Source: Minisyncoccota bacterium
Lineage (GTDB): Bacteria; Patescibacteriota; Minisyncoccia; Phycocordibacterales; UBA5272
Direction of reading: 5' to 3'
DNA: 64,000 nucleotides
Assembly: GCA_046350775.1 (NCBI GenBank)
Contig: JAXLZS010000001.1
Coordinates: 22,353-86,352, forward strand
Shown here piece after piece: positions 18,335 through 21,300 of this stretch; the first letter of the stretch is position 1; every line of letters begins with the position of its first letter. The notes below the pieces were generated by a model that was not told the origin of the DNA, ran no database searches, and worked only from the letters and a program-made list of their open reading frames with translations. Both the position numbers and the translations under genes were made by a program.

Positions 18335-21300
18335 GGTAAACATATTTCCTGATAGGAAATAAGAGCGTAAGGTGGATGCCTTGGCTCAAGGAAGCGAAGA
18401 AAGACGTGATCAGGCTGCGATAAGTTTCGGGGAGGTGCCTTATAACCTTCGATCCGGAAATCTCTGAATGAGGAAACTCTCCAAGAGTAATGTCTTGGAA
18501 TCTAGGGAGCATATCTCTAGAGGCGAACCCGGGGAAGTAAAACATTCTAGTACCCGGAGGAAAATAAAACAAAGTTTATTCCGCAAGTAGCGGCGAGCGA
18601 AAACGGAGGAGCCCAAACCTATACTAGCAATAGTATAGGGGTTGTAGCCTAAGAATGTAGAATTATCTAGAAGAGTTACAAAAGTTGATTATAGATTAAG
18701 TTGTTGGAAAGCAACGCCAAAGGAGGTGATAGCCCTGTAATCGAAATATTCAACTCTCTTTTGTTCTTAGTGCTGAGTAGTTCGAGACACGAATAGCTCG
18801 GATGAATCTGCCGGAACTAACCGGTAAGGCTAAATATTCCTTGAGACCGATAGTGAACTAGTACCGCGAGGGAAAGGTGAAAAGAACCCCGGGAGGGGAG
18901 TGAAATAGAACTGAAACCTTATGTTTACAAGGAGTAGAAGAGGTGCTTGCACCTCGACTGCGTGCCTATTGAAGAATGAGCCAACGAGTTATATTATCCA
19001 GCTGACTAAGCAGCATAAAGTTGTGGAGTCGCAAGCGAAAGCGAGTGTTAATAGCGCGAAAATAAAAGTTGAATAATATAGACCCGAAGCCGGATGAGCT
19101 ACCCATGAGCAGGGTGAAGCAGATCGAAAGATGTGTGGAGGCCCGAACTAATAAGTTGTGCGACTCTTTTGGATGACTTGTGGGTTGGAGTGAAAAGCTA
19201 ATCGAATTCGGTAATAGCTGGTTCTCGTCGAAATATTTTTTGGAATAGCGTCAGGTGGTCCCTTTGGGGGTAGAGCACTGGAAGGTTTTGACTAGTAGAA
19301 ATACGGCAACACCTATCAAACTCCGAATACCAAAGGTCAATAGCCTGGCAGTCAGACTACGGGGGCGAAGCTCCGTCGGTCTAAAGGGAAACAGCCCAGA
19401 TCTAAAATTAAGGTCCCTAAGTATATGCTAAGTGTAAGTAAGGATGTGAAGTTTCATTGACAATGAGGATGTTGGCTTAGAAGCAGCCATCATTTAAAGA
19501 AAGCGTAACAGCTCACCCATCGAGAGACTCTGCGCCGCAGATGATCGGGACTCAAGCATATCACCGAAGTTTAGGGATTGTATGATTTTCATACAATCGG
19601 TAGACGAGTGTTCTACTCTGCGTTGAAGCGGAAGGGGTGACCCACCGTGGAGCGTGTAGAAGTACGAATGTTGGCACAAGTAACCGCAATGGGGGTGAGA
19701 TCCCCCCACGCCGAAAGAATAAGGTTTCCTTCGCAATGATTGTCAGCGAAGGGTTAGTCGGGCCTAAGGAGATGGCTATGCGCCGTATCCGATGGACATA
19801 AGATTAATATTTCTTAACCTCTTATAAATGTGATGGAATGACGCATTGTTGTAATTTACGCCTCTTATCAGATTGAGGTCTTTGTAATGATTAGCACGAG
19901 CATGTAAATCAGTTCGTGAATACTGAGAGTTATGAAGCGAAGGCTGTGGCAACACAGTTGAAGGTAGATGAGCACGGTGCCGAGAAAAGTTTCTACATCT
20001 GTTGAATAACAGATATTGTTTTGTGAATAATGTTTCTAGTCATCTACGAAATATTATTCACAAGTTAACAATACTTTAAATTTATATGAGCCCGTACCGC
20101 AAACCGACACAGGTATTCAGGTCGAGTAGACCAAGGCGAACGAGTGATTTCTCCCTAAGGAACTAGGCAAAAAAGCAGCCGTAAGTTAGCAATAAGGCTT
20201 GCCGATAGCAATATCGGCCGCAGCGAAAGTTTCTCTGGCAACTGTTTATCTAAAACACAGCTCCATGCGAACTCGTAAGAGTATGTATATGGGGTGACAC
20301 CTGACCAATGCGGGAAGGTCAAATATCGGTGGTCACATGTTGATTTTAAAATTTATTTTGAGATCAACATGTGGCTGACTGATATAAGCCCCCGTCAATG
20401 TCGGCGATAACTATAATCGTCCTAAGGTTCTAAATATAAATAATATTTGTATTTAGAATGATTGGGACGATAGATTAGACCGTGAATGTTTTAGTAAATA
20501 CGTTTTAAATTCATTATACTATTAAGCTACCCTGCATCTTAGAAATATTAATGCAGTCGAATGTGGTTAACAAGAGACCAACGCCACACACCTGACTATC
20601 GAAAGATAAAGGTGAAGATAGAGTCCAACTTGAAGGAACAGTTGAGCGAAGTTCCTTGTCTGGTAAGTTCAGACGTGCACGAATGGTGTAATGACTGGGG
20701 AACTGTCTCAGGGAGTAGCTCGGTGAAAATACAGTGGCGGTGAAGATGCCGCCTACCTGCAGATAGACGAAAAGACCCCGTGAGCTTTACTCTAGCTTGG
20801 TATTGTGTTTGTTAATTTACTGCGTAGAATAGTGGTGAGAGGTTTGATGTTGTAGGTTTCGGCTTACATCTACTCGACAGTGAAATAGCCATCTTTAAAT
20901 TGGCAAACACTAACCTAAACGGAAAAAACGTTTAGAGACAGTATCTGGTGGGGAGTTTTACTGGGGTGGTACCCTCCTAAAGAGTAACGGAGGGGTTTAT
21001 TAAGGTCAGTTAGGCGCGAATGGAAACCGTGCCGATAGTGTAATGGCATAAACTGGCTTGACTGTGAGACGGGCATGTCGAGCAGATACGAAAGTAGGAC
21101 ATAGTGAACCGACAATTCGCATTAGATGCGGTTGAAGATTAACGGATAGAAGCTACCACGGGGATAACAGGCTAGTTCCACCTAAGAGTTCATATCGACG
21201 GTGGAGTTCGGCACCTCGATGTCGGCTCATCTTATCCTGGGGGTGGAGAAGCTCCCAAGGGTATGGCTGTTCGCCATTTAAAAAGATACGCGAGCTGGGT

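Follow-up and report, generated by a model that had tools for sequence, protein, structure and literature searches.

A 216-nt group I-derived intron without P4-P6 at position L1931 of the 23S rRNA gene in a Minisyncoccota bacterium

Introduction

What kind of element interrupts the 23S rRNA gene of the Minisyncoccota bacterium represented by GenBank assembly GCA_046350775.1? We analysed a 64,000-nt (64-kb) stretch of its contig JAXLZS010000001.1, hereafter the window, in which the conserved domain IV block made up of GUCCUAAGGU and AGCGAAGUUCC is split by a 216-nt insert. On the evidence of its exact site and of homology in alignments and model searches, this insert is a descendant of the group I intron lineage found at position 1931 (L1931). 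It lacks the P4-P5-P6 domain, and it shares its architecture with a family of short introns from other Patescibacteria.

Group I introns at L1931 are known in Thermotoga, Synechococcus, Simkania and organelles (PMC1995217). In bacteria of the candidate phyla radiation (CPR) position 1931 corresponds to site 23IS7, where group I introns with and without LAGLIDADG genes occur; the survey that described them classified introns by Rfam, and according to it short insertions (ISs), notably 64 of the 66 in Saccharibacteria rRNA (250 bp or less), contained no group I or group II intron (PMC11270868). Reviews describe P3-P7 and P4-P6 as universally conserved (PMC6257700), and in the open-access literature we found no description of natural group I introns without P4-P6.

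Results and Discussion

Position, boundaries and optional presence of the insert

The 23S rRNA gene occupies window positions 18348-21603 on the forward strand (Rfam LSU_rRNA_bacteria, 2264 bits). Its 5' exon terminates in U20428, the insert terminates in G20644 and the exon restarts at A20645; these bounds are unambiguous because the flanking bases permit no sliding. The original prediction had recognised that an intron-type insert splits the block at a classic group I site, after an exon-final U, with an insert-final G and without an open reading frame (ORF), and all of this was borne out. Its dimensions needed correction, since the insert does not measure 223 nt and does not end at 20651, a position 7 nt inside the 3' exon. 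The site also differs from the proposed E. coli 1917-1925 region: in E. coli K-12 rrlH, with A2058 as a numbering control, the U of AAGGU is position 1931, so that the insertion lies exactly between U1931 and A1932, which is L1931. No meaningful ORF was found in the insert, the longest being 25 aa on the reverse strand, besides a 60-aa frame that runs into the exon.

The nearest 23S genes belong to metagenome-assembled genomes (MAGs) labelled Nomurabacteria and Saccharibacteria (94% and 91.5% identity). In metagenomes, a scan for the ligated junction specific to this lineage also identified intron-less 23S genes about 93% identical to that of the window (L122, L126, L128 and L123), which run continuous across the junction. 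Relative to these, the window gene carries no other large insertion, as the alignment is otherwise continuous. The insert is not an expansion segment because such closely related genes lack it. The idea of a lineage-specific expansion, raised with the original prediction, or of a chance AT-rich insertion unrelated to introns could draw on the low GC content, the local hairpins and the lack of any match at the Rfam gathering threshold, but it is refuted by this optional presence, by homology to group I introns of this site that pass the threshold and by the match to the model described below (E = 3.8e-23); we give it practically no chance.

A family of mini-introns at L1931

To delimit the family, one genome per species was scanned for the S element followed by the 3' exon within 5-35 nt, which yielded at least 119 loci. 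The invariance of the S element and of the 3' exon is not independent evidence because the scan pattern contained the 3' exon and most of the S element. In 110 of the loci the intron could be delimited, with lengths from 191 to 845 nt, and about one third of these introns measure 190-290 nt, have no ORF and are built like the window element; we call them minis. Nearly all their hosts are labelled as Patescibacteria (Saccharibacteria, Nomurabacteria, Paceibacteria, Parcubacteria, Zambryskibacteria, Wolfebacteria, Gracilibacteria, Lloydbacteria and Minisyncoccia); a few are labelled only "bacterium" and one (L050) Nanoarchaeia. The L050 contig (DATGWK010000013.1), binned as "Candidatus Nanoarchaeia archaeon", carries a Patescibacteria-type L1931 mini together with the matching flanking 23S exon, and is probably mis-binned.

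A covariance model (R1) was built from 25 minis, from the guide through the terminal guanosine (omega-G), and both the window and its two closest relatives were excluded from training. The model matched window positions 20521-20644 with 103.9 bits (E = 3.8e-23), ending exactly at G20644, and this was the sole significant match in the 64 kb. The same model identifies at least 36 minis among 100 loci (70-130 bits). Rfam behaves differently: a search with RF00028, which had been suggested as a check, gave a match only under permissive settings, at 17.8 bits (E = 0.022, 321-nt search) against a gathering threshold of 50, and no gathering-threshold match was obtained for the minis of L052, L071, L082 and L024. 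The low score is explained by the absence of the entire P4-P5-P6 domain. Across the whole window, Rfam at the gathering threshold returned only rRNA genes and tRNAs, with no other group I match.

The secondary structure was evaluated on an alignment of 35 minis (A1). The proposed pairs are paired in 92.4% of cells, compared with 80.4% in column shuffles and 33-43% with slid partners, and double-sided changes occur at 31 pairs, a number reached by none of 500 shuffles. Compensatory changes back the 5' hairpin hp0, P3, P8, P9, the long-range helix x-x', the helix between the 5' exon and intron strand e1', and the pairing of the P9 loop with the 3' exon. The window intron shares 67-73% identity with the introns of L071 and L052, whose exons are 94% and 91.5% identical, and the substitutions in helices are compensatory. 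These comparisons establish the identity, anatomy and family of the element, its covariation and its optional presence.

Besides its L1931 mini, the 23S gene of L071, the closest relative with an intron, contains another group I intron farther 3' that is complete (3862-4131, Rfam 86.7 bits); the window gene lacks it.

A P3-P9 core without P4-P6

The 3' half of the insert contains the pseudoknotted P3-P7-P8 core of group I introns, with R and S elements and a G-C pair beside a bulged A, followed by P9 immediately before omega-G. The guanosine-binding pocket of P7, proposed as a test of the original prediction, is present in R/S AAGAGACCAAC / AAGAUAGAGUCC: P7 reads GAGAC/GUC(C), and G20576-C20625, next to bulged A20575, corresponds to the guanosine-binding pair. 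The P7 5' strand and R element are identical in 34 of the 35 minis, although they lie outside the scan pattern. The S element agrees with the Rfam group I consensus GAAGAUAUAGUC, and the permissive Rfam alignment contains the diagnostic GAAGAUAGAGUCC (J8/7 plus the P7 3' strand). A P8 hairpin is found at this place in every mini, with four of its five basal pairs covarying, and all four P9 pairs covary (AU15/UA15/GC4 and so on).

The other half of a group I core is missing. No P4-P5-P6, with its P/Q elements, J3/4, J4/5 and J6/7, was found; in its place the family alignment has a joiner of 5-7 nt, where P4-P6-carrying relatives hold about 75 nt with UGCUGG/CAGCAG. Homology with bona fide L1931 group I introns is clear, but the element is not a complete group I intron: P4-P5-P6 is missing, a U-A pair takes the place of the U.G wobble and the score is below the Rfam gathering threshold.

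Exon-binding elements and the 5' domain

The insert pairs with both exons to an unusual extent. In the window, the intron strand UUGGGACGAU forms ten consecutive pairs with the 5' exon. In the family, the corresponding 10-bp helix joins the intron strand UGGGACNGUUA to 5' exon positions about 1917-1927 and is backed by compensatory changes that track substitutions in the stem of helix 69 (H69): among the 35 minis, alignment columns 4/80 are CG27/UA4/UG4, columns 5/79 are GU22/CG5/UA2 and columns 8/76 show one change from CG to UA. At the 3' side, the P9 loop AAGGAAC (20633-20639) is complementary to exon positions 20651-20657. In the family the loop motif AGGAAU pairs with 3' exon positions 1938-1943, with U-A replaced by C-G in the three genomes that have G1938, window included, and G.U in one genome.

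Between these lies the internal guide. In the family, its consensus GCUACCU exactly matches the reverse complement of the joined exons, AGGU/AGC, and because of this complementarity GCUACC(U) doubles as P1 and P10 guide. P1 consists of G20426-C20531, G20427-C20530 and U20428-A20529; the splice-site pair is U-A in all 35 minis, so that the U.G wobble expected at a group I 5' splice site is absent, and no conserved alternative G partner was found. For P10, G20526-C20527-U20528 pair with A20645-G20646-C20647, an assignment by sequence complementarity only, as the bases are invariant. The guide is homologous to GCUGCCUUA and GCUAGCCUUAG of canonical L1931 introns.

The hairpin hp0 starts at the first intron base, where it stands in for the half of P1 that the intron would supply, and it can stack on the pairs between exon and guide. 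Downstream, helix x-x' closes off a section made up of the exon-binding strand, variable region, guide and hairpin B; its variants across the family include GGAC/GUCC, UGAC/GUCA, UAAC/GUUA, GGAU/AUCC and GAAC/GUUC, and the window has UGAU/GUCG with two G.U pairs. Hairpin B carries a GNRA loop (GUAA, GAAA or GGAA) in 35 of 35 minis, on stems of unlike sequence, when each sequence is folded separately; on the MAFFT alignment it is only 41.7% paired because of alignment offsets. Such a loop is what would be expected of a P2 docking on P8. The covariation suggests a pseudoknotted topology in which P1 crosses x-x' and the exon/e1' helix. The variable region (20472-20525) holds the family-wide motifs GAUAAAC and AUUACA, and no consistent covarying helix was established for it in the family alignment.

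Several other structures were considered and rejected. The single-sequence minimum free energy fold (z = -2.0) pairs 20457-20514, is unsupported by the family and was discarded. A canonical P1 with U.G through G20449, G20456 or G20460 gave no family-conserved helix, and splicing after U1926 (U.G with G20464) would leave a 3' end unable to regenerate AAGGUAGCGAA in most family members. A long hairpin at 20411-20475, which produced a spurious MIR8007 match, is hp0 plus the exon/e1' helix. The region 20472-20525 was not retained as a displaced P4-P6, as it varies from 20 to 90 nt, is also present in relatives with a true P4-P6 and has no established covarying helix; GAUAAAC as an internal exon mimic showed no covariation.

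The pairing of the insert with H69 bears on the possibility that host ribonucleases excise a relic without ligation and leave a fragmented 23S rRNA, in the manner of an intervening sequence (IVS); an RNase III-processed IVS had been named as an alternative with the original prediction. IVSs are located in variable helices (H9, H25 and H45), their ends form one long stem, and to our knowledge position 1931 is not an IVS site. The insert resembles them as a short, ORF-less 23S insertion, and together the exon/e1' helix and hp0 make a nearly continuous duplex of about 22 bp. In addition, bacterial 23S rRNAs are known to be fragmented by IVSs, the same is suspected of short uncharacterised CPR insertions, and the "uncharacterised short ISs" of CPR/Saccharibacteria have provisionally been grouped nearby (PMC11270868). 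However, the RNase III reading is unsupported because the ends of the insert do not pair together: they fold separately, as hp0 and P9. Because the long duplex contains H69 bases of the exon, cleavage in it would damage the rRNA. Tsurumaki et al. assign short inserts that resemble IVSs to other sites, 23IS2 and 23IS4 (PMC11270868). The present site is universally conserved, and the ribozyme core, guide and omega-G of the insert, all conserved, would be left unexplained. We regard excision of this kind as quite improbable.

Relatives that keep P4-P6

Five relatives of 258-290 nt (L074, L096, L060, L086 and L080) have the same 5' domain, P3, R, P8, S, P9 and P9-loop motif as the minis, and between P3 and R they carry UAUAUGCUGG(G)AA...AAUCAGCAGG (P4) and a P6 hairpin, that is, a canonical P4-P5-P6. 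Where tested, these relatives pass the Rfam threshold (L096, 57.7 bits; L060, 51.3 bits). The R1 span is 118-147 nt in minis and about 180-190 nt in the full relatives, which have 60-70 extra nt and a lower score. Larger introns at the same site also share hp0, x-x', the exon-binding strand, the guide and the GNRA hairpin. The ORF-bearing relatives L013, L059 and L115 have open frames of 162-193 codons within P6, which in L013 and L059 is a LAGLIDADG gene; the insert has no such gene, since no ORF longer than 60 aa overlaps it. The guide base opposite U1931 is G in the P4-P6-carrying relatives (U.G; GCUGCCUUA) and A in all 35 minis (U-A).

The 690-nt intron of L115, from an Adlerbacteria MAG, has a 184-codon frame and P4-like pairing, and its guide is already of the A type (GCUACCU). 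From its similarity to L013 and L059 its ORF appears to be LAGLIDADG-type, and the intron may represent a stage between the full and mini forms. Because L115 combines the U-A pair with an ORF and P4-like pairing, that pair may be older than the deletion. In two of the P4-P6-carrying introns, L080 and L074, the 3' end is A (...CGAUA/AGCGAA and ...GCGAAA/AGCGAA, with the boundary set by the conserved AGCGAA), which reflects either a shifted splice site or an omega that is not G.

Compared with canonical L1931 introns, the window element has the same insertion point, a homologous R/S core with P3, P7, P8 and P9, and a homologous guide (GCU-R-CCU...) complementary to AAGGU/AGC, and CPR examples of the canonical type occur in the same host phylum (PMC1995217, PMC11270868). 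In contrast, canonical introns measure 650-750 nt, contain an ORF, a complete P4-P6 and the U.G wobble and pass Rfam, none of which applies to the 216-nt element. Conversely, the elaborate 5' domain and the pairing of the P9 loop with the 3' exon are absent from L1931 introns of the Chlamydiae/Proteobacteria type.

Among the at least 119 loci, canonical L1931 group I introns are frequent in MAGs well beyond Patescibacteria, with hosts in Eremiobacterota (many), Chlamydiota, Gammaproteobacteria, Chloroflexota, Deinococcota, Planctomycetota, Armatimonadota and Elusimicrobiota. The 2007 compilation (PMC1995217) lists only a handful of bacterial cases, far fewer than these.

Table 1. Features of the L1931 insert and its exon targets. 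Positions are those of the window; "double changes" and percentages of paired cells refer to alignment A1.
Feature	Position	Strand	Description
5' exon segment	20416..20425	+	E. coli about 1919-1928 (3' strand of H69 and downstream); partner of intron 20462-20471 in helix e1-e1'
Last three 5' exon bases, G1929 G1930 U1931	20426..20428	+	Pair with guide A20529-C20531 (P1)
Whole insertion	20429..20644	+	216-nt, ORF-less, P4-P6-less group I-derived intron at L1931
hp0	20429..20457	+	12-bp hairpin beginning at intron base 1; 6/6 basal pairs with double changes; 99% of cells paired
x	20459..20462	+	5' strand of 4-bp long-range helix; pairs with x' 20556-20559
e1', intron strand UUGGGACGAU	20462..20471	+	98.4% of cells paired; 3 pairs with double changes
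Variable peripheral region	20472..20525	+	About 20-90 nt across the family; local hairpin 20482-20487/20509-20514
Internal guide GCUACC	20526..20531	+	GCU with first 3 bases of 3' exon (P10); ACC with last 3 of 5' exon (P1)
Hairpin B (P2-like)	20532..20556	+	GAAA tetraloop 20542-20545
x'	20556..20559	+	3' strand; pairs with x
P3 5' strand UGUGGU	20562..20567	+	Pairs with 20583-20588; 6/6 pairs with double changes; 95.7% of cells paired
Joiner UAACAA	20568..20573	+	6 nt; stands where canonical introns have J3/4-P4-P5-P6-J6/7 (about 75 nt or more)
P7 5' strand in R element AAGAGACCAAC	20574..20578	+	G20574, bulged A20575, G20576-A20577-C20578; partner G20623-U20624-C20625-C20626
P3 3' strand GCCACA	20583..20588	+	P3 encloses the P7 5' strand
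P8	20589..20614	+	5-bp basal stem, asymmetric internal loop, 4-bp stem, GAAA loop 20601-20604
S element AAGAUAGAGUCC	20615..20626	+	J8/7 (20615-20622) and P7 3' strand (20623-20626)
P9 hairpin	20627..20643	+	Stem 20627-20630/20640-20643, loop 20631-20639
Terminal G (omega-G), 3' splice site	20644	+	G in 35/35 minis; not fixed by the scan pattern
3' exon targets	20645..20657	+	A20645-C20647 pair with guide GCU (P10); G20651-U20657 pair with P9 loop

Does the insert splice?

The simplest history would start from an ancestor with a 5' peripheral domain, both cores (P3-P9 and P4-P6) complete and, in the P6 loop, a LAGLIDADG homing-endonuclease gene that was then lost along with P4, P5 and P6. This would have left the P1/P10 guide, a pseudoknotted 5' domain (hp0, x-x' and the GNRA-capped P2-like hairpin), P3, P7, P8, J8/7, P9 and omega-G. 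Several of the conserved features were not imposed by the scan, namely the GNRA hairpin, the P7 5' strand and R element, omega-G, the guide for P1 and P10, and the helices that track the exons. Of these, omega-G, the guide and the exon-tracking helices serve only splicing initiated by guanosine and the joining of the exons. In our opinion the insert is best explained by splicing of group I type, probably slow or assisted, and we rate this as slightly better than an even call.

Under such splicing, a guanosine bound at the P7 G-C pair would attack after U20428, the freed exon would then attack after G20644, and the pre-23S rRNA would shed the insert. The exons would be gripped by unusually extensive pairing: 5' exon positions 1919-1928 with UUGGGACGAU and 1929-1931 with ACC, and 3' exon positions 1932-1934 with GCU and 1938-1944 with the P9 loop. 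This pairing, the GNRA-docked 5' domain and possibly a host factor or the assembling ribosome may stand in for the P4-P6 scaffold. J4/5 is the receptor of the splice-site U.G wobble, and its position in the lost domain would explain why the wobble is no longer kept. The chemistry could proceed without P4-P6 because an engineered T4 td ribozyme lacking that domain stays active, though about 1000-fold reduced (PMC2879505, citing Ikawa et al. 2000).

A number of observations weigh against splicing. Both its occurrence and its group I chemistry are things that we infer. The U.G wobble, needed for efficient first-step cleavage in the introns that have been studied, is replaced by U-A; P1 in the window is just 3 bp, x-x' includes two G.U pairs, and the search pattern inflates the apparent conservation of S. 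P4-P6 contributes to the active site. It has also been called universally conserved and a scaffold for P3-P7 (PMC6257700), and engineered P4-P6 deletions are about 1000-fold slower. Finally, a Simkania L1931 intron is reported to remain unspliced in 23S rRNA (Everett et al. 1999, cited in PMC1995217).

These points lead to the principal competing explanation, a splicing-dead remnant kept in the mature 23S rRNA, in which the deletion would have abolished catalysis and the compact insert would be tolerated at the base of H69. The loss of both the P4-P6 scaffold and the U.G wobble and the score under the Rfam threshold are in its favour; retention at L1931 is not absurd, given the Simkania report, and Patescibacterial ribosomes are otherwise unusual (PMC9297842). 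However, a retained segment would have no need for an omega-G in 35 of 35 minis, for a guide to the ligated junction or for a conserved guanosine-binding P7/R. If it were permanent, its intron strands, which covary with the 10-11 nt of H69 and the 6-7 nt of 3' exon that they bind, would be in competition with native folding of the rRNA, and the site is within the universally conserved H69-H71 region. We consider retention unlikely.

The missing domain might instead be supplied in trans, by a separate RNA or by another intron. It is established that engineered group I ribozymes can be assembled in vitro from two molecules, with one domain complementing the other in trans. Many Patescibacteria have several rRNA and tRNA group I introns (PMC11270868, PMC13011429), and L071 has its complete second intron in the same 23S gene. 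Against this, a regex search of both strands of the 64-kb window found no P/Q-like element, the window 23S gene has no other intron and the window no other Rfam group I match, and no conserved docking elements were identified. We see only a very slight chance for this minor possibility.

We come back to splicing of the minis by their own core, and to its broader form: a natural, widespread group I ribozyme family that would splice without P4-P6 and without the U.G wobble, by means of the P3-P9 half, a 5' domain folded as a pseudoknot and about 25 nt of pairing to the exons. This we hold to be a serious possibility, a little short of evenly balanced.

Comparison with engineered and small natural ribozymes

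The nearest parallels in organisation are engineered ribozymes without P4-P6, the "minimal catalytic domain" of Ikawa, Shiraishi & Inoue 2000 and derivatives of T4 td and Tetrahymena, which likewise consist of P3-P7(-P8-P9) and peripheral elements (PMC2879505, PMC6257700). The engineered versions are laboratory deletions, with the lowered rates given above, whereas the minis are a natural family across many lineages, have extra exon-binding helices and are known here from sequence alone.

Small natural group I introns, such as the Azoarcus and Anabaena tRNA introns (about 200-250 nt) and the tRNA introns of Patescibacteria, are similar to the minis in size, in lacking ORFs and in being bacterial. 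The Azoarcus and Anabaena introns retain P4-P6 and the U.G wobble. Small natural introns are compact through short peripheral elements and not, as in the minis, through loss of a core domain. The Patescibacterial tRNA introns self-splice in vitro (PMC13011429).

Genomic context

The window is gene-dense, with about 30% GC. Downstream of the 23S gene lie tRNA-Ala(UGC) (21896-21970), the 5S rRNA gene (21991-22098) and rplJ (L10; 22742-23227); no 16S gene is present in the 64-kb window, the arrangement being 23S, then tRNA-Ala(UGC), then 5S. Within 23S domain IV, about 50 nt upstream of H69, an AT-rich near-perfect hairpin at 20331-20378 (GGUCACAUGUUGAU...AUCAACAUGUGGCUGAC) resembles a helix extension relative to E. 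coli; it is apparently not an optional insert, because this stretch of the 23S gene aligns unbroken to intron-less relatives.

Elsewhere in the window, 42660-44564 encodes a short-form alanyl-tRNA synthetase of the PRK01584 type (634 aa), and 13981-17052 a 1023-aa protein whose sole family match is a weak SleB-like cell-wall hydrolase domain. The rRNA gene arrangement, the short synthetase and the labels of the nearest 23S genes jointly indicate a Patescibacteria (CPR) organism. A single frame of more than 1999 codons at 58003-64000 (+) is open at both 58003 and 64000 and continues past the window end. Its product is rich in Gly, Ala, Ser and Thr (27% Gly), with 9-nt repeat arrays in the DNA, and the distal part (60-64 kb) has 49% GC and a GC skew of +0.41, compared with about 30% GC elsewhere; it probably encodes a giant repetitive surface protein.

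Implications

On these data, short insertions at position 1931 are reclassified as intron derivatives. Intron counts in Patescibacteria are underestimated because Rfam-based surveys miss these derivatives, and the family, if correctly interpreted, would explain unclassified short 23S insertions of Saccharibacteria and other Patescibacteria. The engineered "minimal catalytic domain" would also gain its first equivalent in nature. P4-P6 is regarded as one of the two universal halves of group I ribozymes, and here a conserved and diversified natural family lacks that half. If the minis do not splice, their hosts' ribosomes must tolerate, or otherwise process, a 216-nt structured insert at the base of H69. 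If they do, the minimal natural group I catalyst would be redefined, and the minis would offer a model of about 200 nt in which periphery and substrate pairing replace a core domain.

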